Virus record (IMG/VR): IMGVR_UViG_3300042477_000769
DNA from: a virus
Taxonomy: Duplodnaviria > Caudoviricetes
Direction: 5' to 3' (one strand)
Length of the DNA: 64,000 nucleotides
Below, in pieces: positions 1 through 30,081 of the stretch. A program made the position numbers and the translations under genes. Within the stretch, counting starts at the first letter, position 1; each line of letters begins with the position of its first letter. Below the pieces are notes generated by a model. It was not told where the DNA came from and did not search any database. It was given only the letters and a program-made list of their open reading frames with translations.

Positions 1-1
1 T

Positions 2-2347
2 TTGGCACTGGGTAAATTATTTTATTTTAAAGGAATGTTAGGCGGGCCAGAATCAACTAGAAACTGGCAAAAATGCGTTCATTTTATTAGAGAAGGATTA
101 AAATTACCACCCACCAAAACATTATTATTTATTAATCCACAAGAACGAGATTATTTTTCTTATGTCTATTTAAATTATGCTCTTAATAAATTAGGAGATG
201 TGCAGGGAGCTTTAGAGAGCGTTAATATGGGTTTAAAAGCAGAGCCTAATGATACTATGTTATTAGGGAATAAAAAAATATATGAAGATTTCTTGGCGCG
301 AGATGCGATTGTTAAAGCTAGTAATTCATTAAAAAATAATGGCACTTTAACAGATGTTGCTGTTGAAAAGATTAGTGCTATTATCAATAATTTAGAGTTA
401 CCACAAATTGAAGTAGTTAAAAAGAAAAGTTTGCTTCGTAAATCGCGAACTAATGTATTAGATATTATATTTTATCTAGGTAACGGAGTAGAAATATGGT
501 CTCCTGAAACTGTGAGAAAAAATGGCATTGGCGGTAGTGAGTTAATGGCATTAGAATTGGCCAAAAGATTAGCTACTTTAGGTCATAAAGTTAGAGTATA
601 TAACAGTTGTGGAAATTATGAAGGCACTTATGATGGAGTAGAATATTGTCAAACAGAAAAATATCATGATTTAAACTGTGATGTGTTAGTTGTCTCTAGA
701 GATGCTTCAGCTTTAGACAATTCTACTATTACTAGTAAGCTTAAATTATTGTGGGTACATGATATTTTTGCATTAAATGCCAATAGTAAATTACTATTAC
801 AAGCAGATAGAATTTTAGCCTTATCTCAATGGCATAAAAAATTCTTAATGGAGCATCATCATCTTCATCCGGAACATATTATAGTTACTAGAAATGGGAT
901 TGATTTAAATAGGTTCAATATCTCGGTAGATAGAAATAAATATAAGTGTATTAATAGTAGTAGTCCTGATCGTAGCTGGCCGGTGTTATTAGATGTTTGG
1001 CCCACTATTAAAAATGCAGTTCCTCAAGCCGAGCTTCATTTATTTTATGGGTTTAAAAATTGGGAATATAGCGCTCAATTTAATCCAAAACAACAAGAAA
1101 CAATTGCTAGTTTAAAAGAACAAATAAATTCATTACAAAAACTAGACGTTTATTTTCACGATCGAGTTGATCAAGTAACGTTAGCTAAAGAGCTATTATC
1201 CTCTGGTGTGTGGACTTATCCGACATTTTTTACAGAAACTTCGTGTATTACCGCGATGGAAATGCAAGCGGCTGGCGTACGAATGGTTACTTCTAATATT
1301 GCGGCTTTAACAGAAACAGTTGGTAACAGAGGCGTTTTATTAGATGGAGATTGGACCTCAGCAGAATATAAAAATAAATTTATTGCAGCGGTGGTAGAAA
1401 AATTAACACACGAAGATGAATCAGATAGAAAAGAATTACAAGAATATGCTAGATTAAATTTTGATTTAGATCAATTGGCTTTGGATTGGGAAGATATGTT
1501 TTATTCTTTATTAAAAGAAATTACCACTAATCCATTAGTGCCTTATTTTCCAACTCGTCCATATTTAAGTAGATCTTCTTTTCACTCGGCTCCCTTTAGT
1601 TTACTAAATACTGACAATTTAGTTAAACTAAATATTGGTGCTGGCCCTAATATTTTTCCATTTGATGGATGGATTAATTATGATAGAGTATATTTTTCCG
1701 AATATTTTCAGCAATTAACTATGGTAGCTAAAGATGTGAATTTACCAGAAAATGAAAGACATCCTAATACCATTTCATGGATGAAAAATATAACTTCTCG
1801 ACAAGGCAAATTAATAGATTATTTGTCTCGTGGAGGATCTATTGAATATAGAATAGGTGACGTTCAGTATCCTTTTGATATGCATCCAGATAATAGTGTA
1901 GATATTATTTATCTAGGGCAAATGATTGAACATTTAAATCCTATTTATGTGATACCTAAATTATTAGCTGAGTGTTATCGTATGTTAAAGCCAGGTGGAA
2001 CATTAAGAATAACTACACCTGATTTAGATTTATTAATTCAAGCATATCTAAACAATGATTTAGATAAATTTTCTAACGAACAACCGTTATTTTATAAAGA
2101 GGCCGATCCTAGTGAACAATTAGCTTATATTATGTATGGTGCTTGTGGTCCAAATTGCTCTTGGAACAATTATGAAGGTCATATGTTCTTATTTACTAAG
2201 AATTCGATGCGCAAAGCACTTAAAAATGTAGGATTTGAAAAAATTAAGTTTTTCAATTCTGGACATTTAAGTGATCATCCAGTTATTTTACAAGAAGTAA
2301 CGGATGAAGGTGTGAGTCATTCTCTCTTAGTTGAGGCTATTAAGTGA
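2..2347 (+). CDS. 5'-truncated TPR-repeat / GT4-like glycosyltransferase / class I SAM methyltransferase fusion
   Basis: N-terminal TPR-like helices (YLNYALNKLGDVQGALESVNMGLKAEPND); GT-B motifs GGSE, VTRNGID, SSPDR and ETSCITAMEMQAAG; C-terminal KLNIGAG, MIEHL and YRMLKPGG methyltransferase motifs. Open at the window edge. Confidence 0.85.
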   Translation: MALGKLFYFKGMLGGPESTRNWQKCVHFIREGLKLPPTKTLLFINPQERDYFSYVYLNYALNKLGDVQGALESVNMGLKAEPNDTMLLGNKKIYEDFLARDAIVKASNSLKNNGTLTDVAVEKISAIINNLELPQIEVVKKKSLLRKSRTNVLDIIFYLGNGVEIWSPETVRKNGIGGSELMALELAKRLATLGHKVRVYNSCGNYEGTYDGVEYCQTEKYHDLNCDVLVVSRDASALDNSTITSKLKLLWVHDIFALNANSKLLLQADRILALSQWHKKFLMEHHHLHPEHIIVTRNGIDLNRFNISVDRNKYKCINSSSPDRSWPVLLDVWPTIKNAVPQAELHLFYGFKNWEYSAQFNPKQQETIASLKEQINSLQKLDVYFHDRVDQVTLAKELLSSGVWTYPTFFTETSCITAMEMQAAGVRMVTSNIAALTETVGNRGVLLDGDWTSAEYKNKFIAAVVEKLTHEDESDRKELQEYARLNFDLDQLALDWEDMFYSLLKEITTNPLVPYFPTRPYLSRSSFHSAPFSLLNTDNLVKLNIGAGPNIFPFDGWINYDRVYFSEYFQQLTMVAKDVNLPENERHPNTISWMKNITSRQGKLIDYLSRGGSIEYRIGDVQYPFDMHPDNSVDIIYLGQMIEHLNPIYVIPKLLAECYRMLKPGGTLRITTPDLDLLIQAYLNNDLDKFSNEQPLFYKEADPSEQLAYIMYGACGPNCSWNNYEGHMFLFTKNSMRKALKNVGFEKIKFFNSGHLSDHPVILQEVTDEGVSHSLLVEAIK

Positions 2348-3429
2348 AAATTGGCATTATCGCCACTCATTCTTTTCCAATTCCGTATCCTAATCTTCAT
2401 ACGGGCGATATTATTATTTTAAATTTGGCCAAATCATTACAAAAATTAGGCCAAGAAGTTACTTTATATGCTCCAGAAGGAACTCAATTTGATAATTTAA
2501 AATCTATTAAGCCTTCTTTAGGAAAGGCAGACCCAACTGCTTATAAATGTGAAAATGAAATCTATCTGACTTATAAAGATAGTTTATTTTCTCAAGACAT
2601 AATTAGTGATTTTAGTTCCACTAAGCATATTTCAAAAGCCATGAATAATGAAGGTTTTGCAGCTACTTGCTGTACTTTAATGGGTGGACCTTGGAGATAT
2701 ACGTGGGAAACTAATAATATAATTACTTGGTCACAATCTCATCAATTTAGAGTATTAAATGGATTAACAGATTATCATCAAACGCCTTATGTTACTATGG
2801 ATAATGGAGGTTATCCAGTCTCACAAGCCGCTGTTATTTATGGAGGAATTGATACTGATTTTTATGTACCATCTTATAAAAAAGATAATTATTTCCTATG
2901 GTTAGGAAGATGGCACGAAGCTAGAGGTTATCGTATTGCTATTGAAATTGCCAAAAGAACCGGAATTAGATTAATTTTAGCTGGCGAACATCCAGATAAT
3001 GAATTTTTTGAAACTCAAAAAAAATCTGCACAAGAGGCAGAACAATTATGTCAAGGACATTCTAATATAGAAATAGTTTGGTTACCTCCCGATCCAGATC
3101 ATCATTTAATGAAAAGAAAATTGTATCAAGAAGCGATAGCTTTTATTAATCCGACTCAATTTCATGAGCCATTTGGCATGTCTCAAGTAGAGGCGATGGC
3201 ATGTGGAACACCAGTTATTACTACTAACTATGGCTCGATGCCAGAAATAATAACACATAAAAAAACCGGAATCGTATGCCAGAATGATATATATGAATTA
3301 TCTCAAGCTTGCTATCAAATTAATAATATTGATTATTATACTTGCCGGCAACGAGCAGAAGAGTTTGATCAAAAAGTTATGGCTCAATCGTATTTAAATT
3401 TTTACCAAAACATACTCACACAAAGTTAA
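2344..3429 (+). CDS. GT4-family glycosyltransferase
   Basis: LWLGRW and EPFGMSQVEAMACGTPVI (E-x7-E motif); GTGA overlap with upstream stop. Confidence 0.9.
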   Translation: MKIGIIATHSFPIPYPNLHTGDIIILNLAKSLQKLGQEVTLYAPEGTQFDNLKSIKPSLGKADPTAYKCENEIYLTYKDSLFSQDIISDFSSTKHISKAMNNEGFAATCCTLMGGPWRYTWETNNIITWSQSHQFRVLNGLTDYHQTPYVTMDNGGYPVSQAAVIYGGIDTDFYVPSYKKDNYFLWLGRWHEARGYRIAIEIAKRTGIRLILAGEHPDNEFFETQKKSAQEAEQLCQGHSNIEIVWLPPDPDHHLMKRKLYQEAIAFINPTQFHEPFGMSQVEAMACGTPVITTNYGSMPEIITHKKTGIVCQNDIYELSQACYQINNIDYYTCRQRAEEFDQKVMAQSYLNFYQNILTQS

Positions 3430-3430
3430 T

Positions 3431-4090
3431 ATGGAAATTGATTTCAAAGGAAATAAATTTATTATTAGTAAAGGCAGTACTCATCCTGAATATTCTATCT
3501 TTACTTTTACCGGAGAAGAAGTTGATTTTAAAAATAAATATTGGGATATTAAACCAGATGATATTGTTTTTGATGTTGGCTCTTCTTATGGAACTTATGC
3601 TTTAACAGCCACGGCAATGGGAGCTAAAGTTTTTTGTTTTGAGCCTGAATCGACTGTATATTGTGATTTAGTTAATAATATTAAATTAAATAATTGGGAA
3701 CAGCAATGTATAGCTCATAATTTAGCCCTTTGGAGTTGTTCATCTACGGTAGATATGAAAGACTATGCTCCTCATTGGCCAGTTCAAACTATTACTAGTT
3801 TATATCCAACTGATACGTTAGATAATATTGTTAATAAAAATAATTTAACTACAGTAAATTGGATTAAAATCGATGTCGAAGGTTCAGAAGAGCAAGTCCT
3901 ATTAGGCGCCCAAGAAACTATTACTAAATTTTCTCCTAATATGATTATTGAATGTCATAATTTTCTTGATAATCAAATAAGTAATAGAGTTAAAGAATTG
4001 ATATTATCATATAATTCAAATTATAATATTGAAGAAATTGAAAGAGATCCTTGTGTAATGTTAGTGATAAAGTTGAGAGGAAGAATATGA
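3431..4090 (+). CDS. FkbM-family methyltransferase
   Basis: FDVGSSYGTY, FCFEPE and WIKIDVEGSE motifs. Confidence 0.9.
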   Translation: MEIDFKGNKFIISKGSTHPEYSIFTFTGEEVDFKNKYWDIKPDDIVFDVGSSYGTYALTATAMGAKVFCFEPESTVYCDLVNNIKLNNWEQQCIAHNLALWSCSSTVDMKDYAPHWPVQTITSLYPTDTLDNIVNKNNLTTVNWIKIDVEGSEEQVLLGAQETITKFSPNMIIECHNFLDNQISNRVKELILSYNSNYNIEEIERDPCVMLVIKLRGRI

Positions 4091-5208
4091 AAGTTGGGGT
4101 TATTTTAGGGGCATTTAGTATTGGAACTCGTCCTTTAGATTTTTGGTATAATAATATTTGGGATAGTGCTAGGGGATTAACGGGCACTGATTTATGTTTT
4201 GTTAAAACGGCACAAATTTTAGCTCAACGAGGGCATGAAGTCCATTTATTTACTGTACATGCTCAGCCCGCACATAAGCCAGACTACTGGGAAAATGTAA
4301 AAATTCATTCTTTTGAAGATCGTTTCAGTGTTATTGATGACTCTTTTGATGGATTAATTTCTATTAATGAGCCGGATGTATTTAGAGGATTAACTACTAA
4401 ACCCGTGCGTATTGTGTGGCAAATGTTAAATGATTTTCCTTTTTGCCAAGAAGGTTTTGACGATTTTGTCGATCACTGGTTTGGAGTTTGTAATCAACAT
4501 ACTGAATTCTTAAAAAAACAAGTAGCTAAACCAGAAAAATGGCAAACTTTGCCATTAGGATGCAGTCCAGAATGGTATCAAGATCAACGAGTTCCTGGTC
4601 GTGTCATTTGGTGTTCCAGTGCAGATCGAGGTTTACATGTATTGTTATCCCAATGGCCCTTAATTAAAAAAGCGGTTCCACATGCAACATTAAAAATATT
4701 TTATCATTTTAATTATAGTGGCTTAGAAGATATTAGCCCACATGATAAAGAAAGTCATTTTCATGTAGTAGAAATGGGAAATCGTATTAGGTATATTAAA
4801 TATGCTATTGATAAATTAAAAAATTTTGGTGTTGAACATGTCGGGTCAATTAGTCGAGAGCAAATGAAAAAAGAATTTAGCGAAGCGGCAGTCTTTGCTT
4901 TTAGTTGTGACACGGTTGCCTTTTCTGAAGGTTTTTCAGTATCTACCTTAGAGGCTCACGCAAGTTTTACCGTACCAGTTATTACTTCTCAAGATTGTTT
5001 GGGGAGCATTTATCAAGATTCGGGCGCTATTATTATTCCAGCTCCAGTTAAAGATCATTTGCCAGACTATACACAAGCAGTGATTAAAAGTTTATTAGAT
5101 ACCGAATATTCTAATGAAATTATTAAAAATTGTCGTAATTTTGCTGAAAATCATACCTGGGAAAAAAGCGTCTCAGTCCTGGAATCTACTATTTCTGCGG
5201 GTAAATAA
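4087..5208 (+). CDS. GT4-like glycosyltransferase (start revised to 4087)
   Basis: GLTGTD, WCSSADRGL and EGFSVSTLEAHAS motifs; paralogous to the GT domain of 2-2347. ATG 4087 overlaps the upstream stop (ATGA) and follows GAGAGG. Confidence 0.85.
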   Translation: MKVGVILGAFSIGTRPLDFWYNNIWDSARGLTGTDLCFVKTAQILAQRGHEVHLFTVHAQPAHKPDYWENVKIHSFEDRFSVIDDSFDGLISINEPDVFRGLTTKPVRIVWQMLNDFPFCQEGFDDFVDHWFGVCNQHTEFLKKQVAKPEKWQTLPLGCSPEWYQDQRVPGRVIWCSSADRGLHVLLSQWPLIKKAVPHATLKIFYHFNYSGLEDISPHDKESHFHVVEMGNRIRYIKYAIDKLKNFGVEHVGSISREQMKKEFSEAAVFAFSCDTVAFSEGFSVSTLEAHASFTVPVITSQDCLGSIYQDSGAIIIPAPVKDHLPDYTQAVIKSLLDTEYSNEIIKNCRNFAENHTWEKSVSVLESTISAGK

Positions 5209-5219
5209 AAATTAGTCGA

Positions 5220-5228
5220 TGTTATAAT
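5220..5228 (+). promoter_or_regulatory. Extended -10 promoter (TGnTATAAT) ahead of the NDP-sugar genes
   Basis: TG-T-TATAAT in a 38-nt intergenic gap, followed by SD AAGGTG and ATG 5247. Confidence 0.6.
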
Positions 5229-5246
5229 TGACTGAGAAAGGTGACC

Positions 5247-5663
5247 ATGGATAATAAAAAATACTCAGAGATGGTAGAAAAAGAAGAATTTCCAACGGAA
5301 ATGTCGGTACCATTAGATACTCCGACTATCGATGAACGAGGCGTAATACAAAATATTCTAAACTCTCATGTTGGCAGTGTAGCGATTATTACTAGTAAAG
5401 CTGGTTCTGTCAGAAGTAATCATTGGCACCAAAGCAATTGGCATTATTTATATGTCATTTCTGGTAAGATGAAATATCTAGAAAGAAATTTAGATGGTTC
5501 AGGTTTAAAAGAAAAAGTATATCAAACTGGAGAATTAGTTTTTACTGCTCCTCATAAAGCCCATCGAACAGAATTTTTAGAAGATACAGTCTTATTAAGC
5601 CTAGGAAAGTCTTCTAAAGAGCATCAACATCATGAAGAAGATTTAGTTAGAGTGATATGGTAA
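5247..5663 (+). CDS. Cupin-fold protein, probable NDP-sugar epimerase/isomerase (start revised to 5247)
   Basis: RSNHWH...YLYVISGK and TAPHKAH cupin motifs; sugar-pathway context. Confidence 0.7.
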   Translation: MDNKKYSEMVEKEEFPTEMSVPLDTPTIDERGVIQNILNSHVGSVAIITSKAGSVRSNHWHQSNWHYLYVISGKMKYLERNLDGSGLKEKVYQTGELVFTAPHKAHRTEFLEDTVLLSLGKSSKEHQHHEEDLVRVIW

Positions 5664-5666
5664 GTT

Positions 5667-6899
5667 ATGCAAGTCAAGAATAAAGTTGTCAAAAATTGTT
5701 TATTATGTGGCGGAGAAACTAAAATAATTATAGATTTAGGAAAAACACCTTTAGCTAATAATTTCACTACTGAAAAAGTTGCCCAAAAAACTTTCCCTTT
5801 ACGCTTAGTACAATGCCAACATTGTCAACATGTACAATTAGATTATATTGTACACCGTAAAACTTTGTTTGAAAATTATTTATATGTTTCCGGCACTTCA
5901 CCAGTTAATGTGAAACATTTTCAGGATTATGCTCATCAAGTAATTGAAAAATTTCAATTAAATGAACATAATTTAGTTTGTGATGTGGCCTCTAATGATG
6001 GATGTTTCTTACAGAATTTCAAAAATACTACCAAAATAGTTGGAGTGGACCCAGCTAAGAATATTGCGGAAGAAGCAAATCAAAATGGAATTTATACTAT
6101 TGCTGATTTCTTTTCGACTAAATTAGCCAAAGAAATTAAACAAAATCATGGGTTTGCTAAAGTTATTACTTGTAATAATATGTTAGCTCACAATATGGAC
6201 ATTAAAGATATTGTTAAGGGCGTCAAAGCGCTTCTTGATCCTCAAGGGACTTTTATCTTTGAAAATTCTTATTTATTAGATATTGTTAATTTTGATCTTA
6301 TTGATTTGGTGTACCATGAACATATTCATCATTTTCACATCTATCCATTAGTTAAGTTTTTTAATCAATTAGGGATGGATATTTATCATGTGGAGCGCTT
6401 ACCTAATCATGGTGGCTCTATTAGAGTATATGTTTGCTTTCAAGGACAATATCCAATCGACCCATCAGTTCAGCAATGTTTAGAGTTAGAAAAAGAAATT
6501 CCTAATAAAATTAAACAGTTAGCAGTTAAAATTGAACAATTAAAAGAAAAAATTAATACCAGCTTGTTATCTTTACATTCTCAAGGTAAAAAAATTGGAG
6601 TTTTTGGTTTTCCGGCAAAAGCTACAACATTAATTTACGGACTAGGAATCAATATGAAGACCATAGATTTTATTGTAGATGATGCCAAATTAAAACAAGG
6701 AAAATTTATTCCCAGCCAATCTCAAAAAAAATCAATGGTAATTGAACCTCCTTCAGTTATTGTAAGTAAAAATCCAGATTATTTATTAATTTTGGCTTGG
6801 AATTTTGCGGATTCTATTATAGAAAATTGTAAAAAACAAGGTTATACTGGCAAATTTATTGTTCCGCTGCCACAATTTAGCATTAAGGGGGAAATGTGA
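5667..6899 (+). CDS. NDP-hexose C-methyltransferase (TylC3/EryBIII-like architecture)
   Basis: Zn-binding CLLCG...CQHCQHVQL, DVASNDG, YHEHIHHF, HGGSIRV, and C-terminal FGFPAK, IVDD and LAWNFAD motifs. Confidence 0.9.
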   Translation: MQVKNKVVKNCLLCGGETKIIIDLGKTPLANNFTTEKVAQKTFPLRLVQCQHCQHVQLDYIVHRKTLFENYLYVSGTSPVNVKHFQDYAHQVIEKFQLNEHNLVCDVASNDGCFLQNFKNTTKIVGVDPAKNIAEEANQNGIYTIADFFSTKLAKEIKQNHGFAKVITCNNMLAHNMDIKDIVKGVKALLDPQGTFIFENSYLLDIVNFDLIDLVYHEHIHHFHIYPLVKFFNQLGMDIYHVERLPNHGGSIRVYVCFQGQYPIDPSVQQCLELEKEIPNKIKQLAVKIEQLKEKINTSLLSLHSQGKKIGVFGFPAKATTLIYGLGINMKTIDFIVDDAKLKQGKFIPSQSQKKSMVIEPPSVIVSKNPDYLLILAWNFADSIIENCKKQGYTGKFIVPLPQFSIKGEM

Positions 6900-7864
6900 A
6901 AAAAATATTAGTTACAGGTTCATGTGGATTTATTTTCTCTAATTTTATGAGAAAAGTGATGCAAGATAAATTACCCTATACTTTTGTCAGTATAGATAAA
7001 GTATTATCGCCTTATAATTTATATAATGTGGAGTTAAATAAAGACCACCATTTTTATATGGGAGATATTGCTGATGAGCAATTTGTCGAGAATGTTTTTA
7101 AATTAGAAAAACCAGATATTATCATTCATGGAGCAGCAGAAAGTTTTGTTGACGACTCTATTCGAAGTGCTGCTCCATTTATTCATTCTAATGTAGTCGG
7201 CACCCAAGTCATGGTAGATATTTCTTTAAAATATAATGTAGAAAAATTTATTTACATTAGCACCGATGAAGTATATGGTCAATTGGCCTATGGTGATAGT
7301 AGCTGGACTGAGCTATCTTCTATTAATCCTAGAAATCCCTATTCTGCTTCTAAGGCTGCAGGAGAACTAATCGTGAGAGCAGCTAATCAAACTCATGGTC
7401 TAAAGTATAACATTACCCGATGCTGTAATAATTATGGCCCTAGTCAGCCATATCGTAATTTAGTGCCGGTTATTATTTATAATTTATTGCATAATAAACC
7501 TATTCCTATTCATGGTAGTGGAAAACAATATCGTGAATGGATTTATGTTGAAGACCATATTAGTGCTATTTTAAAAGTATTAGAGTCAGGTTCTGTAGAT
7601 GAAACATATAATATTGGTACTGGAGCAGAATGTACTAATTTAGAAATGGTGGAAAATATTGCCGCTATTTTGAATAAAACCCCTATAATTCAAAATGTAA
7701 AAGATCGCCCCGGTCATGATTTTAGATATTCAGTTAATTGCTCCAAATTACACAAATTAAAATGGAAACCTTCTTTTAAATTTACCGAAGGTTTAGAAAA
7801 GTGTGTGAATTGGTATCTAAATAATACTTGGTACTGGAATGAACAATCTAATATTAGTTGGTAA
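6896..7864 (+). CDS. rmlB: dTDP-glucose 4,6-dehydratase
   Basis: HGAAESFVD, YISTDEVYG, PYSASKAAG, RCCNNYGP and DRPGHDFRY. Confidence 0.9.
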   Translation: MKKILVTGSCGFIFSNFMRKVMQDKLPYTFVSIDKVLSPYNLYNVELNKDHHFYMGDIADEQFVENVFKLEKPDIIIHGAAESFVDDSIRSAAPFIHSNVVGTQVMVDISLKYNVEKFIYISTDEVYGQLAYGDSSWTELSSINPRNPYSASKAAGELIVRAANQTHGLKYNITRCCNNYGPSQPYRNLVPVIIYNLLHNKPIPIHGSGKQYREWIYVEDHISAILKVLESGSVDETYNIGTGAECTNLEMVENIAAILNKTPIIQNVKDRPGHDFRYSVNCSKLHKLKWKPSFKFTEGLEKCVNWYLNNTWYWNEQSNISW

Positions 7865-8624
7865 TGGTCAGTGGGGAAAGAATTATGTTAACACTTTGAG
7901 ACAATTTTCAAATGTAAATTTAAAGATTGCTAATAGAAATAATTGGCAATCTTTAATTGATCAAGGCGCAGATGGCGTCATTATCTGTACCCCTCCAGAT
8001 TCACATATAGAAATTGCTCATTTTTCCTTATCAAGAAATATTCCAACTATGATAGAAAAGCCGGTGGCTTTATCTATGTCAGAAGTATTATCCTTAGAAA
8101 CTTATACCGTTCCTATTTTAGTGAATTATATTCATTTATTTTCTGAAGCTTATCAACTAGCTAAACAATCTATTCAAGGCCCAATATTAGAGATTAATTC
8201 TATTGGTTATAATAAAGGGCCTCTCCGCACTTATTCTAGTTTGTGGGATTATGGCTCCCATAATATAGCCATGATATTAGATCTTATAAATAAGATGCCA
8301 ACTTCCATAACGGCCAAAAAAGAGATTACTCCACATGGAGAGTTATTTCATTTATCTTTAAAGTTTGATCAGATAAATACTCTGAGTATTATTGGAAATG
8401 GGGCCGAAACGAAAGCCTTAAAATTAGATATTAAATCTAAAAACCATGTAATTTATGATAATAAAGATAATTCATCTTTACAGATTAGTCCGTTAACTAG
8501 TGCGTTACAAGTTTTTATTCGAGCTCTCCATGGGCACAATGATGGTAGGTTAGGATTATATTTAACGAAGCAAGTTACTCAAATCCTAATAGAATGTGAA
8601 AATATATGTAATATTCTTATATAG
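7839..8624 (+). CDS. Gfo/Idh/MocA-family oxidoreductase
   Basis: LVGNGQWG, MIEKP and WDYGSH motifs. Confidence 0.85.
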   Translation: MNNLILVGNGQWGKNYVNTLRQFSNVNLKIANRNNWQSLIDQGADGVIICTPPDSHIEIAHFSLSRNIPTMIEKPVALSMSEVLSLETYTVPILVNYIHLFSEAYQLAKQSIQGPILEINSIGYNKGPLRTYSSLWDYGSHNIAMILDLINKMPTSITAKKEITPHGELFHLSLKFDQINTLSIIGNGAETKALKLDIKSKNHVIYDNKDNSSLQISPLTSALQVFIRALHGHNDGRLGLYLTKQVTQILIECENICNILI

Positions 8625-8639
8625 TAGGAGGAGTGAATA

Positions 8640-8957
8640 ATGCCTGATTTTGGAAATCCTAGAGCCCCGATTGATTATGGTTTTGATTATAATTTCTTTG
8701 CCAAACTTACTGTCAATAATGCTAATTATAATACAAATTGTGATATGATTATTAATTTAGCCGCTCCGACGTATGCGGTGTCGTTTCAGTTGGAGAGCGG
8801 GACCCGAATTGAGTACTCCTTTAACGGCATCACCACCCATGGCGACATGATCCTTTCCGAAGCCAGCACCAACCTATTATTTCAAAACAGAGTCATCTCT
8901 AAAATATGGTTTAGAGGCGATGGCTATGTTCGAGTAGAAGCATGGGCCATTAGATAA
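8640..8957 (+). CDS. Small beta-rich hypothetical protein, possibly virion-associated
   Basis: Strong SD (AGGAGGAG), 105 aa, contains a DGY motif. Confidence 0.6.
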   Translation: MPDFGNPRAPIDYGFDYNFFAKLTVNNANYNTNCDMIINLAAPTYAVSFQLESGTRIEYSFNGITTHGDMILSEASTNLLFQNRVISKIWFRGDGYVRVEAWAIR

Positions 8958-8972
8958 TTTATAAGAAAGACC

Positions 8973-9770
8973 ATGAAAGACAAAATTTGTAGCACCTGCC
9001 AAATTACTAAAGATATTTCTTGTTTTCACAAAAATAAAACCAAATTAGATGGATTAAGCAATATTTGCAAACCCTGTAAATCTTTATATTATCACGGATT
9101 TAAAAAAGAAAATACTAGAAAAATGTTGTTGCAACAACAGCTTAAACATTGTCCACAATGTCAAGAAATTAAACCTATTTCTTTATTCTTTAATAATAAA
9201 TCCTCAGCTAATAAACTGTCCACTTATTGCAAAACTTGTTCAGTCATTAAAAATAATCAATATTATCAACAACATAAGCCAAAATTAACCTGTCAAACTT
9301 GTACGACTTCTATTGCTAGAGGTAAATTTTGTCCAGAGTGTCGTATTATTCACAAAAAAGAATATCGAAAATTATTTGAAAGAAAGCAACGTCAACAGAT
9401 AGAATATCGGCTCAAGAATAATATTTCACGATCGGTTCGAGAGATGTTATTGTTAAGAAACAAAAGCAAAAGAAATCGCACAATTGTTAATTATTTAAAT
9501 TATTCGGTTAATGAATTAGTGGCTCATTTAGAATCTAAATTTGAGCCCTGGATGAATTGGGATAATTATGGAACATACAATAAAAATGTTTGGAATGACC
9601 AGGATATAAATACTTGGACATGGCAAATTGATCATATCATGCCTCATAGTTATTTCAATTATACCTCTTTAACAGAGGAAGCATTCCAGCAATGCTGGGA
9701 TCTGAATAATTTGAGACCTTTATCCGCCAAAGCCAATATACACAAAAGCAATTATTATGGCCAAAAATAA
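8973..9770 (+). CDS. HNH endonuclease with three N-terminal CxxC...CxxC zinc fingers (free-standing homing-endonuclease-like)
   Basis: HLESKFEPWMNWDNYG...WQIDHIMP...NNLRPLSAKAN; paralog of three other genes in the window. Confidence 0.85.
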   Translation: MKDKICSTCQITKDISCFHKNKTKLDGLSNICKPCKSLYYHGFKKENTRKMLLQQQLKHCPQCQEIKPISLFFNNKSSANKLSTYCKTCSVIKNNQYYQQHKPKLTCQTCTTSIARGKFCPECRIIHKKEYRKLFERKQRQQIEYRLKNNISRSVREMLLLRNKSKRNRTIVNYLNYSVNELVAHLESKFEPWMNWDNYGTYNKNVWNDQDINTWTWQIDHIMPHSYFNYTSLTEEAFQQCWDLNNLRPLSAKANIHKSNYYGQK

Positions 9771-10080
9771 ATTAATTCTTAATAAATGTGAAATTGAAGG
9801 GTGTCAAGAGACAGAAAATTTACATTTGCATCATATTATTGAAAGAACAGAATTAAATACCAATAATCATCCTTTTAATCTTAGTATTTTGTGTCCTAAT
9901 CATCATGCACATGTGCATAGTGGTAGATTAAAAATTATTGGAGTGTTCCCATCTACACAGTTACCGAATAAAAGAACCTTAATCTATGAATTAGATGGTA
10001 AAAAGAATGTAGACATAGATCGACCTTATATCCAATTTACTAATAAATCATTTAAAATTCATGGAGAAAGTAATGAGTAA
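9757..10080 (+). CDS. Small HNH endonuclease
   Basis: CEIEGC...LHLHHI...NLSILCPNHHAHVH. Confidence 0.85.
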   Translation: MAKNKLILNKCEIEGCQETENLHLHHIIERTELNTNNHPFNLSILCPNHHAHVHSGRLKIIGVFPSTQLPNKRTLIYELDGKKNVDIDRPYIQFTNKSFKIHGESNE

Positions 10081-10405
10081 GTTTAAAATTGATGCGACTA
10101 ATCCTGACAATATCAGTAATAAACCCACTAATGAAGCTGAGACTCGTAAAAAGTTTTTAACCGTGGCTAGTTGGGCCGGTCGTCAAAAAGATATGTTAAC
10201 TTTGTTTTATAAATTTGATAAATTAAGAAGAGAAGCTAAAACAGAAGAACAAAAAAAAGATCTAGGTAAAATCGGAGCGATTGAAGTATATAGATTATTA
10301 GGAGATTGTTTTGCTACTTTAAAAGCTAATGGAGCTTTAGTTCTTCCCGGTGTCGAACGTGGAGAATTATGGGTAGACGGAGAATTAGTATATAAAGAGA
10401 AATGA
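10073..10405 (+). CDS. Hypothetical protein (start revised to 10073)
   Basis: SD GGAG at 10063 upstream of ATG 10073. Confidence 0.6.
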   Translation: MSKFKIDATNPDNISNKPTNEAETRKKFLTVASWAGRQKDMLTLFYKFDKLRREAKTEEQKKDLGKIGAIEVYRLLGDCFATLKANGALVLPGVERGELWVDGELVYKEK

Positions 10406-10421
10406 TACGATTAAATCTTAA

Positions 10422-10471
10422 GTTTTAAGTAATTACGCCTACTTAAAACCAAAAAATTATTAAAGGGCGTA
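10422..10471 (+). promoter_or_regulatory. Predicted H-type RNA pseudoknot in the cold-shock gene leader
   Basis: S1: GTTTTAAGTA 10422-31 pairs with TACTTAAAAC 10440-49 (10 bp). S2: TACGCC 10434-39 pairs with GGCGTA 10466-71 (6 bp). SD AGGA at 10475. Confidence 0.65.
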
Positions 10472-10484
10472 TTTAGGATAAGAC

Positions 10485-10724
10485 ATGAGTGAAAATAAAA
10501 AACATTATGGTGAAGTTATCTTTTTTGATCCCAAAAAAGGTTATGGTTTCTTAGAATGGCGGAGCGAAGCCGGAGAACGACAAAAGGATCTTTTTGTTCA
10601 TTTCTCTGATGTAGTCTGTGATGGCTTTAAAACTCTGTTCAAAGGACAAAAAGTTTCTTTTGGATTAGGCACCAATATGAGAGGTGAGCCTAAAGCCACT
10701 GAAGTAACCGTACTCAGACATTGA
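10485..10724 (+). CDS. csp: Cold-shock domain protein (CspA family)
   Basis: RNP1 KGYGFL, RNP2 LFVHFS and GFKTL.GQKVSF. Confidence 0.95.
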   Translation: MSENKKHYGEVIFFDPKKGYGFLEWRSEAGERQKDLFVHFSDVVCDGFKTLFKGQKVSFGLGTNMRGEPKATEVTVLRH

Positions 10725-10725
10725 G

Positions 10726-11010
10726 TTATTTTTTTAGAAATATTTGAATTATTTGAATGACTAAAGAAAGCAATCCAGTAATGAATAATACTTGAATTCG
10801 AAATAAATCTTTATTAGTAGCATCAGCCTGAACTAAGATTTTATCTATTTTCTTATCTTGTTCAGTTTGATTCTTTTTAATTTCATTTAAAGAACCAATC
10901 ACCTCTTCATTTTGGTCTGCGACTTCGGTTTGAATTTCAATAGATTTTTTGTTAACCTCTAAAATGAAGTCCAGGTCTTGTTTCTTTACATTATCATTTC
11001 GTTCGGGCAT
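10726..11010 (-). CDS. Coiled-coil protein with a C-terminal transmembrane helix
   Basis: Heptad-like N-terminus; hydrophobic IQVLFITGLLSLVIQIIQIFL followed by KK. Confidence 0.65.
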   Translation of the reverse strand: MPERNDNVKKQDLDFILEVNKKSIEIQTEVADQNEEVIGSLNEIKKNQTEQDKKIDKILVQADATNKDLFRIQVLFITGLLSLVIQIIQIFLKK

Positions 11011-11029
11011 GCCTGGTTCCTTAGGTTAA

Positions 11030-11200
11030 TTATTTTGTTTTCTTACTAGCCTTTCTGGTCTTTATTTTATTAATTACCTTTTCGCATTTTTCATTCAAAT
11101 TTTTATACTCTTCCAAAATTTCATCCAGGTGCTCAATATTAGCTGGCTCTGGAGGGTCCATAGTATCATTAGATGTACTCACTAATCGTTTAAGAGACAT
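11030..11200 (-). CDS. 56-aa protein absent from the ORF track (MSLKRLVSTSND...TRKASKKTK)
   Basis: Hand-translated; SD AAGGTG upstream; fills the gap between two co-oriented genes. Confidence 0.7.
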   Translation of the reverse strand: MSLKRLVSTSNDTMDPPEPANIEHLDEILEEYKNLNEKCEKVINKIKTRKASKKTK

Positions 11201-11202
11201 AA

Positions 11203-11589
11203 TCACACCTTTTTTCGAAGATTATCCAAATCTACCATATCGGCATTTTCTTTAGCAAATTCTTCATCAGACATATTTAATTCTTCATAGGTATCTTCTT
11301 TAATAGCAAAAATAGAGCGTTCTCGAGAAGGAATATTACTATTTTGTTGAAAAGACATTTGTGCTTTAGCGATTATGGGAGCCACTTTTCTTACTACTAA
11401 CTTATCCCGTTTCTTAAATAAAGAACCGGATTCAGCAGATTTTTTTAATTGCTCTAAATTATAGTAGTAGTGACGAGTATCCATTAAATTAACCGAAGTG
11501 TAAGCTTTAATAGTCAGATTCAAATCTGATAAGCTAACATTTCGATTAGAAATATTGGTAATCCAAAACTCTGGATGGGTTTTATCCAT
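11203..11589 (-). CDS. Hypothetical protein, probably leaderless
   Basis: 128-aa ORF; no SD; -10 box 6 nt before the ATG. Confidence 0.7.
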   Translation of the reverse strand: MDKTHPEFWITNISNRNVSLSDLNLTIKAYTSVNLMDTRHYYYNLEQLKKSAESGSLFKKRDKLVVRKVAPIIAKAQMSFQQNSNIPSRERSIFAIKEDTYEELNMSDEEFAKENADMVDLDNLRKKV

Positions 11590-11595
11590 GATATC

Positions 11596-11624
11596 AGTAT
11601 ATTTTTTTATTAGTTGCTTTCCAA
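11596..11624 (-). promoter_or_regulatory. Sigma70-type promoter, leaderless geometry
   Basis: Minus strand TTGGAA-N17-TATACT-N6-ATG(11589). Confidence 0.55.
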
Positions 11625-11665
11625 GAATTTATCAAAAAAGATATTATTAGTTTTGCATGTAGGGT

Positions 11666-12007
11666 ATGAGCAACATTTTGCAATATATGCCAGGAATGCA
11701 GGCGACAATTTATTTAGAAACCAAAAGTAGTGATGGTTATCGAACAGATAGTCCCACTCTCCCAATGGTCAATAAAATTATTTTTCCGGCATTAACCTTA
11801 GCAGCTAACTATCCGAGTCCAATGACCAAAGTAGAGACTGGATTATATGTAGCTCAATTTACTCTTCCTACCGGAGCGGCTTCGATTGGCAGTTATTTAG
11901 TCGATATCTCCTATACTCATCCTACTACTAATATAGTAAATACTGATATTTATCAGGTTATTGTGACAGCACCCTATGGCAATTTTACAGTTAATACTAC
12001 TATATAA
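11666..12007 (+). CDS. Small Ig-like/beta-sandwich virion protein
   Basis: TGLYVAQFTLP...GSYLVDISY resembles the N-terminus of the next gene (IGKYSYIFTIP...GVFQDIWEG). Confidence 0.5.
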   Translation: MSNILQYMPGMQATIYLETKSSDGYRTDSPTLPMVNKIIFPALTLAANYPSPMTKVETGLYVAQFTLPTGAASIGSYLVDISYTHPTTNIVNTDIYQVIVTAPYGNFTVNTTI

Positions 12008-12034
12008 ATCTCATTAGAGATTGGAGACTTAATC

Positions 12035-12934
12035 ATGGTAATCAAAGCACGCGGAGAAACTTTAGATGTGACGGATCAAGTTAATTTGATCGTACAATTT
12101 AAAGATTCAGCAGGAAGCCCAGTTAATACTGATTCGTTTCCTAGAATTTCTATTGTTCAACCCAGCGGATTAGTCTTATTAGCTCCAACTTCTGCCGGAG
12201 TAACCCAAGTAGGTATCGGTAAATACTCTTATATTTTTACTATCCCTATTAATGGACCTTATGGGGTGTTTCAAGATATTTGGGAAGGGTATATTAATGG
12301 ATTTCGAGTGGAAGCCTTATTTAATTTTGTCGTGGTTAAAACCGATATTCCAGCAATCAATACTGATGGTTATGCTCATTTAGGTGATAGTGTTCCTTTT
12401 AATTACTCCCAAGCGGCCATTAAAAATATTAATAAATTATTAAAATCATTACGAGCCAGATTAAATAGTCAAGGTAAAGCCAAAGCCACAGATAGTTATG
12501 GTAATGTTATTTATGTAGATTGTGATATTTTTTCTATTGATATGTTAGTTACTTTCTTAGCTACTGCTTTATGGGACTTTAATCAAGTGCCATTTTTTAC
12601 ATTCTTTCAATTTGATGATGATAATTTCGTTGAACAATTTGGAGAAATTTTAGTAGAAGGTGCCACCCTCTATGCTTTAGCGTCTAAAGCGTTAATTGAA
12701 AGAGGAAGAGAGTTTCAAATTACCGATAATGGATTAAATTTTAATCCTCCTACCGTGAGTGATTTGATGAATACTCAGTATAGTAGTTTGTTGAGCCATT
12801 ACTGGGAAAAGTTGAAGTTCATAAAAGCCTCCCTCCGCCCTGCCCCTCGTGGCCTGGGCGTCTTTGGGATGAGTTCGGGGCTGAACCCGGCCTTCGCTAG
12901 ATTAAGACATCTGCGGGCACGCAGATTAATCTAG
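12035..12934 (+). CDS. Putative head-tail adaptor (neck) protein with an N-terminal Ig-like domain
   Basis: Helical C-terminal half with the adaptor-like pattern ALASKALIERGREFQITDNGLNF; position upstream of the tail module. Confidence 0.5.
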   Translation: MVIKARGETLDVTDQVNLIVQFKDSAGSPVNTDSFPRISIVQPSGLVLLAPTSAGVTQVGIGKYSYIFTIPINGPYGVFQDIWEGYINGFRVEALFNFVVVKTDIPAINTDGYAHLGDSVPFNYSQAAIKNINKLLKSLRARLNSQGKAKATDSYGNVIYVDCDIFSIDMLVTFLATALWDFNQVPFFTFFQFDDDNFVEQFGEILVEGATLYALASKALIERGREFQITDNGLNFNPPTVSDLMNTQYSSLLSHYWEKLKFIKASLRPAPRGLGVFGMSSGLNPAFARLRHLRARRLI

Positions 12935-16735: not shown

Positions 16736-16784
16736 AATAATAATAAAAGGACATACAGATAAATCTTTATAATACGAGAAATTA

Positions 16785-18140: not shown

Positions 18141-18186
18141 TATTCAATGAATACTAATTAAATTGTATCCAATACAAGGAGTTTGT

Positions 18187-18567: not shown

Positions 18568-18605
18568 TAACAAATTTAGTTATATAAATTACCGATGGTA
18601 GGATT

Positions 18606-24704: not shown

Positions 24705-24707
24705 TCT

Positions 24708-26203: not shown

Positions 26204-26249
26204 ATAATACTATATAACAATGAATATTTACTTTTAATGGAGTTTCATA

Positions 26250-29294: not shown

Positions 29295-29319
29295 TCCTCT
29301 CAGATATAGTTGGTAGAGA

Positions 29320-30051: not shown

Positions 30052-30081
30052 GATAAACACTATATTGTTTAGGAGTTTACG

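Follow-up and report, generated by a model that had tools for sequence, protein, structure and literature searches.

A glycosylation gene cluster of a huge phage and its likely acceptor, a collagen-like fibre protein

Introduction

Which sugar do the enzymes of a closely packed gene cluster in a phage genome make, and to what do they attach it? A first-pass annotation had proposed that the phage makes a C-methyl deoxysugar glycan and puts it on its own particle. This interpretation is supported in part: the enzymology agrees with the sequences, and the attachment receives indirect support from the linkage to a collagen-like gene and from the GmaR-like GT2 domain of the first enzyme. The likely acceptor narrows to a collagen-like fibre, the virion membership of which we infer.

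Organization of the locus

The window is the 64,000-nucleotide stretch of DNA that was analysed; the phage is a huge lake-water myovirus. Eight plus-strand genes at positions 2..8624 are closely packed with overlaps or gaps of at most 32 nt (Table 1). ORF positions and profile matches confirmed all enzyme types that had been annotated, each on the plus strand, and searches per enzyme upheld the family assignments (Pfam, NCBIfam, PDB relatives, Atlas models). By inspection, catalytic motifs were intact across the cluster enzymes. No TM-like segment was found in the cluster proteins, the maximum KD19 being 1.30. The earlier placement directly upstream of the virion module was loose: between the cluster and the first structural-type gene are about 6 kb of small genes, which encode a cold-shock protein and a 2H phosphoesterase among others. 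Pfam scans covered all but a few of the window ORFs of at least 100 aa, and the homing-endonuclease-like ORFs were checked with PHROGs only. The annotated absence of a nucleotidyltransferase and a 2,3-dehydratase holds for the ORFs scanned.

Table 1. Features of the window and their supporting matches
Feature	Position	Strand	Evidence
Fusion gene, window part (3' 781 codons)	1..2347	+	Pfam: GT4 and class I methyltransferase domains
GT4 glycosyltransferase, 361 aa	2344..3429	+	Glycos_transf_1 75.6 bits; Glyco_trans_1_4 66 bits
FkbM-family SAM methyltransferase, 219 aa	3431..4090	+	PF05050 60 bits; TIGR01444 88 bits
GT-B (GT4-like) glycosyltransferase, 373 aa	4087..5208	+	Pfam borderline; Atlas model
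Metal-type cupin, 138-140 aa	5241..5663	+	Polysacc_synt_C and Cupin_2
NDP-hexose C-methyltransferase, TylC3/TcaB9/MtmC type, 410 aa	5667..6899	+	Methyltransf_13 and Methyltransf_14
dTDP-glucose 4,6-dehydratase (RmlB-like), 322 aa	6896..7864	+	TIGR01181 349.9 bits (cutoff 365.1)
Short Gfo/Idh/MocA NAD(P) oxidoreductase, 261 aa	7839..8624	+	PF01408; PDB 3c1a 77 bits
First structural-type gene downstream of cluster	start 14783		
Homing-endonuclease-like ORF	25526..26203		PHROGs
Tail sheath	26250..29294		
Homing-endonuclease-like ORF	29320..30051		PHROGs
Homing-endonuclease-like ORF	30784..31668		PHROGs
Baseplate J	47669..51784		

Glycosyltransferases and O-methyltransferases

The first ORF is truncated by the 5' edge of the window; the last part of the TPR region lies inside, together with the GT4 and class I SAM methyltransferase domains. 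The full gene (L001:6783-10001) starts 874 nt before the window, and its product of 1073 aa has the Pfam order GT2-TPR-GT4-methyltransferase. The three GT4-like transferases counted before are present; because the full gene adds an N-terminal GT2 outside the window, the glycosyltransferase domains number four. The closest solved relative of the GT2 domain was GmaR (53.8 bits, E 8.5e-14), followed by SunS and a ThuS-like enzyme, and the fusion carries DGDD, ExxxxxxxE and GAG motifs. GmaR is a flagellin O-GlcNAc transferase with TPR repeats, and GmaR, SunS and ThuS-like enzymes act on proteins or peptides in the cytoplasm (PMC9638930); in FlmG the protein substrate is bound by the TPR domains (PMC7591256). 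Judged by its sequence, the first cluster enzyme resembles cytoplasmic protein O-glycosyltransferases. Listeria GmaR likewise consists of a GT2 domain followed by TPR repeats, and GmaR, Caulobacter FlmG and the peptide S-glycosyltransferase SunS are soluble and transfer an NDP-sugar straight onto protein (PMC9638930, PMC7591256). On the other hand, the phage fusion adds GT4 and methyltransferase modules, lacks the GmaR anti-repressor domain and has a collagen-like chain as presumed acceptor, whereas that of GmaR and FlmG is flagellin.

By architecture, with no sequence relation claimed, the fusion is also similar to A064R (with A061L) of the chlorovirus PBCV-1, a virus-encoded GT-GT-methyltransferase in which a C-terminal SAM methyltransferase follows two glycosyltransferase domains. 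This enzyme builds and O-methyl-caps the 6-deoxyhexose end of the virion capsid glycan in the cytoplasm (PMC9614988). A second, free methyltransferase adds another methyl group in that system (PMC9614988). Yet A064R has no TPR repeats, it acts in a eukaryotic virus, on the N-glycan of the major capsid protein, and its system contains no C-branched sugar.

The top NCBIfam match of the free 361-aa GT4 was Agl16, followed by further GT4 families. The Atlas model of exactly this 373-aa protein (pLDDT 0.87) had TM values of 0.80-0.91 to GT4 clusters, mostly viral, and the protein is 54% identical to its L005 counterpart. The FkbM enzyme is a probable sugar O-methyltransferase.

Putative enzymes of branched-sugar synthesis

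All of the ten best PDB relatives of the RmlB-like protein are dTDP-glucose 4,6-dehydratases (up to 272 bits). It carries the Thr-Asp-Glu (TDEV) and YxxxK (YSASK) motifs of these enzymes, its Rossmann motif is a GxxGxxF variant, and its score lies 15 bits under the NCBIfam equivalog cutoff. The best solved relatives of the C-methyltransferase were the D-mycarose 3-C-methyltransferase MtmC (PDB 4rv9, 224 bits), TcaB9 (177 bits) and 5t64, a further sugar 3-C-methyltransferase (167 bits). As in TcaB9-type enzymes, it has a Cys4 zinc site and a Tyr-x-Glu-His catalytic motif; Cys4, SNDG and Y-x-E-H were invariant in seven phages. The cupin is a candidate NDP-4-keto-sugar epimerase or isomerase: it matched the C-terminal cupin of Cap5F/CapF (E 1.7e-4), but oxalate-decarboxylase cupins scored better. 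Its HxH...H motif is kept in relatives, where the cupin, if present, always adjoins the C-methyltransferase. In the Gfo/Idh/MocA enzyme GxGxxG, EKP and DxxxH are present and kept in relatives, and its nearest Atlas clusters are mostly viral. We infer a role as terminal ketoreductase. In deoxysugar pathways, enzymes of this family are better known as C-3 ketoreductases or 3-dehydrogenases than as 4-ketoreductases, so that the order of steps could differ.

The motifs of C-methyltransferase, RmlB and Gfo/Idh/MocA enzyme are all conserved in six related phages, and at this level the C-methyl deoxysugar enzymology claimed before is supported. A 6-deoxy rather than a 2,6-dideoxy product, as annotated, is also the simpler expectation because the window ORFs scanned include no 2,3-dehydratase. 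The actinomycete antibiotic pathways of TylC3, EryBIII, MtmC, TcaB9 and KijD1 share the three-domain C-methyltransferase with its zinc site and Tyr/Glu/His active site, fed by an RmlB-type dehydratase. In contrast to these, the phage cluster has no 2,3-dehydratase, aminotransferase or SDR 4-ketoreductase, the partners of its C-methyltransferase are the cupin and the short Gfo/Idh/MocA enzyme, and the proposed target is a protein in a virus instead of a polyketide.

The collagen-like protein upstream

A gene for a collagen-like protein of 2309 aa adjoins the fusion gene upstream on the same strand with a gap of 76 nt and ends 950 nt before window position 1, i.e. outside the window. Its uninterrupted Gly-X-Y tract shows at least 457 triplets, with Thr at Y in 195 of 457 (43%), and is nearly uncharged (0.29% charged residues). 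The protein also bears a LamG-like domain. A low-confidence model of its C-terminal domain (pLDDT 58) matched TNF/C1q-type jelly rolls, among them B. cereus ExsFA/BxpB, a BclA entry and phage receptor-binding heads; the sole sequence match to BclA (1wck) lies within the collagen repeats. There were no other collagen ORFs in the 64-kb window, L009, L005 or L006. The tract would form a triple helix about 0.4 micrometres long, free of both hydroxyproline and salt bridges. The peptide (Gly-Pro-Thr)10 becomes triple-helical solely once its Thr carries a sugar, and viral collagens are enriched in TGP triplets (PMC11923368). With the cluster right behind the collagen-like fibre gene, the likeliest reading is a phage that coats its own fibre with sugar.

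Conservation in related phages

The fusion-glycosyltransferase family had 657 matches (E <= 0.001) among 8000 candidates scored, and 12 of the 120 best were on contigs >200 kb. The gene order fusion glycosyltransferase, GT4/methyltransferase, cupin, C-methyltransferase, RmlB, Gfo/Idh/MocA is retained in nine relatives, with the cupin missing in L007. Conservation of the cluster extends over a clade of huge phages. Fusions in relatives couple activities: GT4 and FkbM are joined in one 618-aa gene in L007, as are cupin and C-methyltransferase in LR756502.

In eight of ten loci examined, a collagen-like gene (58-490 triplets) is found no more than 10 kb from the cluster, in four of these directly upstream, and Thr ranks first or second at Y in the linked genes. 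The visible flanks of the other two loci, L012 and L013, held no collagen gene. The head domains are non-homologous between relatives, and strictly speaking the acceptors are therefore not orthologues. In L007 the collagen-plus-glycosylation module sits between homologues of window genes 14783..16735 and 16785..18140, which are adjacent to each other in the window. The module therefore moves as a unit.

Alternative targets of the glycan

Other virion proteins might be glycosylated by the same enzymes, either in place of the collagen fibre or in addition to it. Candidates are capsid, sheath, baseplate or fibre proteins, such as the outer tail proteins enriched in the Asp-Gly-Tyr tripeptide. This would parallel the glycosylation of mycobacteriophage capsid and tail tube, where phage-encoded glycosyltransferases decorate short C-terminal tails of the subunits; the passages of the citing article that describe it mention neither a collagen protein nor a branched sugar (Freeman et al. 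2023, as cited in PMC12619734). The 35 ORFs counted together contain about 30 DGY tripeptides, where about 2.8 were expected; with one exception these lie in ORFs downstream of the cluster, and the collagen protein has none. The cluster is placed between head and tail regions, two relatives retain it with no collagen gene in view, and a second, smaller glycosylation locus about 2.9 kb beyond the window end (L009:14225-17827) makes more than one acceptor plausible. Yet DGY may have a structural role in a repeated fold and has no link to a glycosyltransferase, the linkage that is actually conserved is to collagen genes (8/10 loci), and the chemical need for glycosylation is clear in the Thr-rich, uncharged collagen tract. 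We consider other virion proteins an unlikely answer.

Remodelling of the host surface is the role usually assumed for glycosyltransferases of aquatic myoviruses. The enzymes would then modify O-antigen, capsule, S-layer or flagellin during infection, for superinfection exclusion or to keep progeny from sticking to debris. Bacterial surface-polysaccharide loci typically hold genes of the GT4, FkbM, RmlB and C-methyltransferase types, the C-methyltransferase has its nearest cellular relatives within a conserved bacterial and archaeal cassette, and pelagimyophage glycosyltransferases are usually read this way (PMC7029224). Against it, Pfam scans found no flippase, polymerase, ABC transporter or initiating phosphoglycosyltransferase in the cluster or window, the cluster proteins have no membrane segment, the GT2 domain is similar to protein glycosyltransferases, and, in a clade of huge phages that are apparently lytic, the cluster lies amid structural genes and shows linkage to collagen genes. 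Such a role is quite doubtful here.

Hypermodification of phage DNA bases with sugars, which would evade restriction, is highly improbable: phage glycosyltransferases that place diverse glycans on DNA are known (10.1101/2023.12.21.572611; PMC13326640) and GT4_2 had a weak, sub-threshold match to 'GT4-conflict' (21 bits), but Pfam detected no hydroxymethylase, TET-like or other base-modifying gene in the cluster or the scanned window ORFs, and TPR repeats with a GmaR-like GT2, two O-methyltransferases and collagen linkage are foreign to known DNA-glycosylation systems.

Proposed pathway and comparison with BclA

We favor, with somewhat better than even confidence, soluble O-glycosylation of the phage collagen fibre with a methylated glycan that contains the proposed C-methyl-6-deoxyhexose. 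The cluster would be a self-contained cytoplasmic protein O-glycosylation system with the giant Thr-rich collagen-like protein as its main client. RmlB would convert dTDP-glucose, supplied by the host or by a phage RmlA elsewhere in the genome, to dTDP-4-keto-6-deoxyglucose, which the cupin may epimerise or isomerise. The TylC3-type enzyme would then add a SAM-derived C-methyl branch, most likely at C-3 and otherwise at C-5, and the Gfo/Idh/MocA enzyme would reduce the 4-keto group to yield a dTDP-3-C-methyl-6-deoxyhexose of the virenose, evalose or cereose class. Guided by the TPR repeats, the GmaR-like GT2 would attach the first sugar to Thr/Ser of the unfolded collagen chain; extension of the glycan would fall to the GT4 domain of the fusion and to both free GT4 enzymes, and its O-methylation and capping to the class I methyltransferase of the fusion and to FkbM. 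Glycosyl-Thr at Y would stabilise the long triple helix, and the glycans would also supply a hydrophilic, protease-resistant coat.

Mimivirus, along with the glycosylated fibrils of giant viruses, offers another parallel: here, too, a very large virus encodes collagen-like proteins, an enzyme (L230) by which these are glycosylated, and its own nucleotide-sugar pathway (PMC9614988). Yet L230 uses the animal-type chemistry of Lys hydroxylation and glucose addition, whereas the phage has no hydroxylase, Thr as likely sites and a bacterial host.

If the proposed pathway is true, the phage coats its own fibre much like Bacillus spores coat their BclA hairs. Cereose, one of the BclA sugars, is reportedly itself a 3-C-methyl-6-deoxyhexose, the synthesis of which takes a dehydratase, a C-methyltransferase and a reductase. 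BclA forms the exosporium 'hairy nap' of the Bacillus cereus group and carries rhamnose, anthrose and cereose glycans; its collagen region bears short O-glycans with rare methylated sugars, anthrose or cereose (PMC12357932). Both systems have a Gly-Pro-Thr-type collagen protein, a trimeric TNF/C1q-like C-terminal head (that of the phage from the low-confidence model) and deoxysugar pathway genes beside the collagen gene. They differ in that BclA belongs to a spore, while the present system is viral. The phage sugar is probably dTDP-linked via RmlB instead of CDP-linked, the phage reductase is of the Gfo/Idh/MocA family, and the four-module GT2-TPR-GT4-methyltransferase enzyme has no described BclA counterpart. 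Finally, the phage stalk is about 20 times longer than that of BclA and is interrupted by extra LamG-like and beta domains.

Layout of the cluster and its fusion glycosyltransferase

Eight co-directional ORFs on the plus strand span positions 2..8624, overlapping each other or leaving gaps of at most 32 nt, a packing that, as far as the sequence goes, is the layout of one translationally coupled operon. Assignment by Pfam, NCBIfam and searches of solved structures (see table) confirmed the gene content of what the first-pass annotation had described as a branched-sugar glycosylation cluster. Its 5' boundary did not hold, because the window edge cuts into the first ORF. The upstream sequence was read via public contigs carrying the protein of 2344..3429. 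The full gene (L001:6783-10001, on a contig that extends beyond the 5' edge) codes for a fusion glycosyltransferase (fusion GT) of 1073 aa with four modules, i.e. an N-terminal GT2 with DGDD (residues 7-110 by Pfam), TPR repeats (approximately residues 209-390, also by Pfam), a GT4 with ExxxxxxxE and a class I methyltransferase. A near-identity DNA search of the phage collection with the cluster and an exact 50-mer search of IMG/VR gave no match. Scans for sigma-70 promoters and intrinsic terminators in 1..12500 and at the junction of the collagen and GT genes stayed at shuffle level and were uninformative.

Genes of the glycosylation cluster and the basis of their assignment
Product	Position	Strand	Basis
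GT4 and class I methyltransferase domains (3' part of the fusion GT)	2..2347	+	Pfam
GT4	2344..3429	+	Pfam, NCBIfam
FkbM methyltransferase	3431..4090	+	TIGR01444, 88 bits
GT-B enzyme	4087..5208	+	Pfam borderline; Atlas model of the exact sequence, TM 0.8-0.9 to GT4 clusters
Metal-type cupin, Polysacc_synt_C / CapF C-terminal kind	5241..5663	+	Pfam and solved-structure match
Three-domain sugar C-methyltransferase (C-MT)	5667..6899	+	Solved-structure matches MtmC, TcaB9, 5t64
RmlB-like dehydratase	6896..7864	+	TIGR01181 and solved relatives
Gfo/Idh/MocA oxidoreductase, 261 aa	7839..8624	+	Pfam, solved-structure and Atlas matches

The best solved relative of the GT2 domain was GmaR (E 8.5e-14, PDB search), followed by SunS and a ThuS-like enzyme. 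GmaR is the flagellin O-GlcNAc transferase of Listeria, in which a GT domain precedes the TPR, and SunS- and ThuS-type enzymes glycosylate peptides (PMC9638930). In FlmG the protein substrate is bound by the TPR domain (PMC7591256). The fusion GT shares with GmaR the TPR repeats downstream of the GT domain and has the features of GmaR/FlmG-type enzymes, a GT domain joined to TPR in a soluble protein. No membrane-type segment was found in any cluster protein (maximal hydrophobic 19-mer KD 1.30). By this scheme a protein substrate would be bound by the TPR repeats and the GT2-TPR enzyme would transfer sugar directly to its Ser/Thr residues. For GT2-TPR residues 1-460 (25-row alignment) paired with a collagen segment of 46 residues, complex prediction gave a score of 0.00, which was uninformative either way. 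The architecture of the fusion GT parallels that of A064R from PBCV-1, a multi-domain GT-GT-methyltransferase by which the rhamnose end of the glycan on the chlorovirus capsid is assembled and 2-O-methylated (PMC9614988).

Enzymes of the predicted sugar pathway

The best solved relatives of the C-MT were the D-mycarose 3-C-methyltransferase MtmC (224 bits), TcaB9 (177 bits) and the sugar 3-C-methyltransferase 5t64 (167 bits), with the MtmC alignment running over the full length (residues 6-406 of 410). An N-terminal Cys4 zinc-binding domain (Methyltransf_13, PF08421, 55.8 bits), whose CxxC...CxxC is invariant across 7 phage sequences, is followed by a central SAM-binding Rossmann domain (PF13489) and a C-terminal Methyltransf_14 domain (PF08484, 114.5 bits). 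The active-site Tyr-x-Glu-His (Y222/E224/H225 in TcaB9) is present in VYHEHI, which aligned to IYDEHF of TcaB9, and Y, E and H are invariant in the relatives. The C-MT is predicted to catalyze the SAM-dependent C-methylation of an NDP-4-keto sugar. Candidates for the methylated carbon are C-3, as in the best structural relatives, and C-5, as in NovU.

The RmlB-like enzyme narrowly missed the curated equivalog cutoff of TIGR01181 (349.9 versus 365.1 bits). Its ten best solved relatives were all dTDP-glucose 4,6-dehydratases with up to 272 bits. The catalytic Thr-Asp-Glu (TDEV at residue 123) and Tyr-x3-Lys (YSASK at 149) are present and invariant in 6 phage sequences. The NAD motif GSCGFIF has Phe for the third Gly of GxxGxxG, a variant seen in 4 of 6 clade members with the canonical Gly in the other 2. 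We regard the score shortfall and the GxxGxxF variant as caveats to the assignment rather than as grounds to drop it. The Gfo enzyme (PF01408, 32.7 bits) contains GxGxxG (GNGQWG), EKP (IEKP) and DxxxH (DYGSH), all conserved in 7 phages, and the HxH...H motif of the cupin is intact. Across six related phages the active sites of all four enzymes, C-MT, RmlB, Gfo and cupin, are conserved.

A nucleotidyltransferase and an NDP-hexose 2,3-dehydratase, which the first-pass annotation had found missing, indeed had no Pfam match in the window ORFs scanned (nearly all of at least 100 aa). A 2,6-dideoxy product of the mycarose type came into question with MtmC as the best structural relative; it was rejected as the default because no 2,3-dehydratase was found among the window ORFs scanned or in the nine related clusters.

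A related cassette in bacteria and archaea

When a profile built from the phage C-MTs was run against prokaryotic genomes, one per species, at least 585 loci were returned. In the best 80 of these (L014-L093) a cupin was located immediately upstream of the C-MT 61 times, and the full order cupin, C-MT, SDR, Gfo was found 39 times (e.g. L042:7496-11210, L032 and L016). The taxa of these best 80 loci included Rhodospirillales, Magnetospirillum, Prochlorococcus, Elusimicrobia, CPR bacteria and DPANN archaea. The four-gene cassette has the look of an uncharacterised route to a sugar with a C-methyl branch. Its SDR carries motifs of the UXS/ArnA type (SSSEIYG, YDESK), which suggests a generator of UDP-4-keto-pentose, and the sugar made is possibly a pentose. 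With these motifs and an identity of 23-28%, the bacterial SDR was rejected as an orthologue of the phage RmlB. Both versions, RmlB type and UXS type, occur on one phage contig (L095), where a UDP-glucose dehydrogenase precedes the UXS-type cassette. This 192-kb contig carries two tandem C-MT cassettes at L095:15377-23399, the first consisting of UDP-glucose dehydrogenase, Gfo, SDR and C-MT, the second of cupin, C-MT, a DUF723 insert, RmlB and Gfo.

In phage and bacteria alike, one SDR per cassette would generate the NDP-4-keto sugar, which cupin and C-MT would process and the Gfo enzyme reduce. This common logic supports the predicted roles of SDR, cupin, C-MT and Gfo. In both the phage and the bacterial cassette Gfo is the one candidate for the reductase step, and we infer that it is the NDP-4-keto (or 3-keto) sugar reductase of the pathway.

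The collagen-like protein

A gene on the same strand, which ends 76 nt upstream of the fusion GT gene and thus outside the window, codes for a collagen-like protein of 2309 aa. Its main tract comprises 457 uninterrupted Gly-X-Y triplets (in the 2234 residues readable), mainly GPQ, GPT, GSI, GAT and GST, with Thr at Y in 195 of the 457 (43%) and GPT alone accounting for 95. The 1371 residues of the tract include four Arg and no Lys, Asp or Glu, i.e. 0.29% charged residues. At 0.286 nm per residue it would be about 0.4 micrometres long. After it, a LamG-like domain, a beta-rich domain and a C-terminal domain of 200 aa are separated by short collagen runs, two before the beta-rich domain and one behind it.

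The C-terminal domain had no match in a Pfam scan. Its fold was predicted with low confidence from a 7-sequence alignment (pLDDT 58) and with a pLDDT of 30 from the single sequence. In Foldseek the best matches of the low-confidence model were nearly all either jelly rolls of the TNF/C1q type or phage receptor-binding heads, among them B. cereus ExsFA, BxpB and the BclA entry 3twi, with TM of 0.45-0.59 by target. An Atlas features search placed a C1q cluster at rank 7 with a score of 0.91. A C1q/TNF-like trimeric head is likely from these models, but not established.

Viral and bacterial collagens have anomalously many Thr-containing triplets, and Ac-(Gly-Pro-Thr)10 is a random coil that becomes triple-helical only with glycosylated threonines; KGE/KGD salt bridges are an alternative stabiliser, for which charged residues are needed (PMC11923368). 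Because the phage tract is almost devoid of charge and no hydroxylase gene was found near it, it would need glycosylation of its threonines.

Conservation of the cluster and linkage to collagen genes

The fusion-GT family is very large, with 657 matches (E <= 0.001) among 8000 candidates scored. The best 120 of them all exceeded 970 bits, and 12 of those 120 were on contigs of 243-479 kb. Some homologues (P0003, P0015, P0113) contain intein or LAGLIDADG domains (PF14528, PF13403, PF14890); inteins usually reside in highly conserved, important proteins. The contig context was inspected for eight divergent members (46-62% identity) and for the contig L057. The order fusion GT, GT4/methyltransferase genes, cupin, C-MT, RmlB, Gfo was kept in all nine, with the cupin missing in L007. 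Gene fusions and fissions tie the activities together: GT4 and FkbM form a single gene of 618 aa in L007, L011 has the methyltransferase module as a gene of its own, and cupin and C-MT are one ORF of 867 aa in the 642-kb phage LR756502.

By direct count of GXY runs, 8 of 10 loci have a collagen-like ORF no more than 10 kb from the fusion GT, with 58 to 490 triplets and Thr as the first or second commonest Y residue. The collagen ORF lies directly upstream in 4 loci (the window's phage, L008, L094 and L095) and downstream in L057, while the visible flanks of L012 (just 4.3 kb upstream) and L013 contained none. The linkage is not due to collagen genes being ubiquitous, since no other collagen-like ORF was found outside the module in the 64-kb window, the 10 kb beyond, L005 and L006. 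In L007 collagen and glycosylation genes lie between homologues of the adjacent window genes 14783..16735 and 16785..18140, which indicates a joint move of the two parts. Between phages, the globular heads of the collagen proteins are non-homologous, as would be expected of fibres whose distal domains can be exchanged.

Several peculiarities of single loci were noted. In L007 RmlB is split into two ORFs of 186 and 90 aa (L007:18345-19293 and L007:16298-17056) and the cupin is unrecognisable, which may reflect decay of the cassette or assembly errors. L057 is a 10.9-kb contig (GC 47%) binned with a Methylobacter MAG that holds a whole phage-type module of fusion GT (47% identity), GT4, cupin, C-MT, RmlB and Gfo, followed by a collagen-like ORF of 190 triplets; mis-binning of a phage contig is the probable explanation, and the bin is perhaps a weak hint at the host. 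A small response-regulator receiver-domain protein (PF00072), an odd passenger for a sugar operon, is encoded between C-MT and RmlB on a 472-kb JGI contig and at L094:19313-19732. Homing-endonuclease-like genes (DUF4379/CapR, DUF723, weak HNH) are located within or just after the sugar cassette (L005:3607-4539, L095:21323-22444, window 8973..9770) and always separate conserved enzyme genes. Several relatives have a cold-shock-domain gene 2-3 kb downstream of the cluster (window 10485..10724, L008:22617-22832, L011:19950-20186, L094:23010-23228).

The proposed acceptor of the glycan

The proposal of the first-pass annotation that the phage glycosylates its own particle gained partial support and could be sharpened to the collagen fibre as the likely acceptor, with the linkage in 8 of 10 loci and the GmaR-like GT2-TPR speaking for it. 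Two features of the BclA-type system are found in the phage, a long collagen region rich in Gly-X-Thr triplets, and deoxysugar and glycosyltransferase genes beside the collagen gene, here 76 nt apart. The phage module follows the logic of the BclA pathway with a cupin in addition. Cereose, as Li et al. reportedly found in 2017, is a 3-C-methyl-6-deoxyhexose formed through the action of dehydratase, C-methyltransferase and reductase enzymes. O-glycans with anthrose or cereose decorate the collagen region of BclA in the spore hair of the B. cereus group (PMC12357932). Judged by its genes, the cluster, which a whole clade of huge phages has kept, most likely is a soluble O-glycosylation system for a BclA-like phage collagen fibre.

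Other virion proteins may be further clients of the cluster. Asp-Gly-Tyr occurred about 30 times in the window ORFs versus about 2.8 expected from composition, i.e. roughly ten-fold more often (35 ORFs counted), and all but one copy were downstream of the cluster; the collagen protein and the glycosylation enzymes have none. ORFs with this tripeptide are found within 14783..62614 of the window, e.g. at 14783..16735, 18606..24704, 43244..45445 and 51784..58929. Furthermore, a second, smaller glycosylation locus is present at L009:14225-17827, about 2.9-6.5 kb past the 3' end of the window. It directly follows the tail-fibre region; its three genes, for a GT4-like protein of 371 aa, a 231-aa class I methyltransferase and a GT2 of 230 aa, are interspersed with homing-endonuclease-like genes of the DUF4379 type.

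The lack of membrane segments and the GmaR/SunS-like GT2 argue against a lipid-linked surface-polysaccharide route, as does the lack of genes for a flippase, polymerase, transporter or polyprenyl-phosphate/initiating phosphotransferase, for which there was no match in the cluster or the Pfam-scanned window ORFs. Host machinery may nevertheless be used. Remodelling of the host surface, the conventional role of glycosyltransferases in aquatic myoviruses (PMC7029224), fits poorly with the linkage to a collagen gene and the soluble, GmaR-like features of the cluster. DNA glycosylation has no support in the window, as no base hydroxymethylase, dioxygenase or kinase was found in the cluster or the Pfam-scanned window ORFs.

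Virus-encoded virion glycosylation and glycosylated bacterial collagens are known kinds already, and the phage cluster is a variant of both. Giant eukaryotic viruses and a few mycobacteriophages are established cases of autonomous virion glycosylation, to which glycosylation of the collagen fibre would add huge phages. The client would be a very unusual one, an almost uncharged collagen stalk exceeding human type I collagen in length, and glycosylation of Thr offers a testable answer to how viral collagens free of Hyp and charge fold. The full picture of a clade of huge freshwater phages that make sub-micrometre BclA-like collagen fibres and coat them with a methylated glycan of their own that contains a C-branched deoxysugar has, in our estimate, somewhat less than an even chance of being right. 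If true, it would be the first virus-encoded branched-chain sugar pathway in the literature searched and the first case of a phage stabilising a collagen triple helix by Thr glycosylation instead of by hydroxyproline and salt bridges. Long-range capture of hosts or particles would then fall to the variable heads (TNF-like, LamG-like or beta-helix). The literature searched, an incomplete selection, contained no description of a phage-encoded C-methyl sugar pathway or of phage collagen glycosylation. The analysis predicts fibres of about 0.4 micrometres on uncultured lake phages and assigns predicted roles to an eight-gene module common to hundreds of metagenomic contigs. It also points to an uncharacterised cassette of cupin, C-MT, SDR and Gfo widespread in bacteria and archaea. 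Recombinant collagens could be given custom O-glycosylation with the soluble GT2-TPR-GT4-MT enzyme.

Phage context

The window contains a tail sheath gene (26250..29294), a gene for a baseplate-J protein (47669..51784), homing endonucleases and several giant ORFs without known families; most of its giant structural ORFs had no match in PHROGs. A 2H phosphoesterase of the LigT/2'-5' RNA ligase superfamily (Pfam, 33 bits) is encoded on the minus strand at 13705..14193, beside a 253-aa ORF without family. In relatives, capsid-like and terminase genes precede the module by up to 10 kb. Lake-water metagenomes contain the stretch again, with at least 69% of its sampled words in each of 10 runs, three of which may be its source, and one contig carrying it belongs to the 0.2-1 Mb class.
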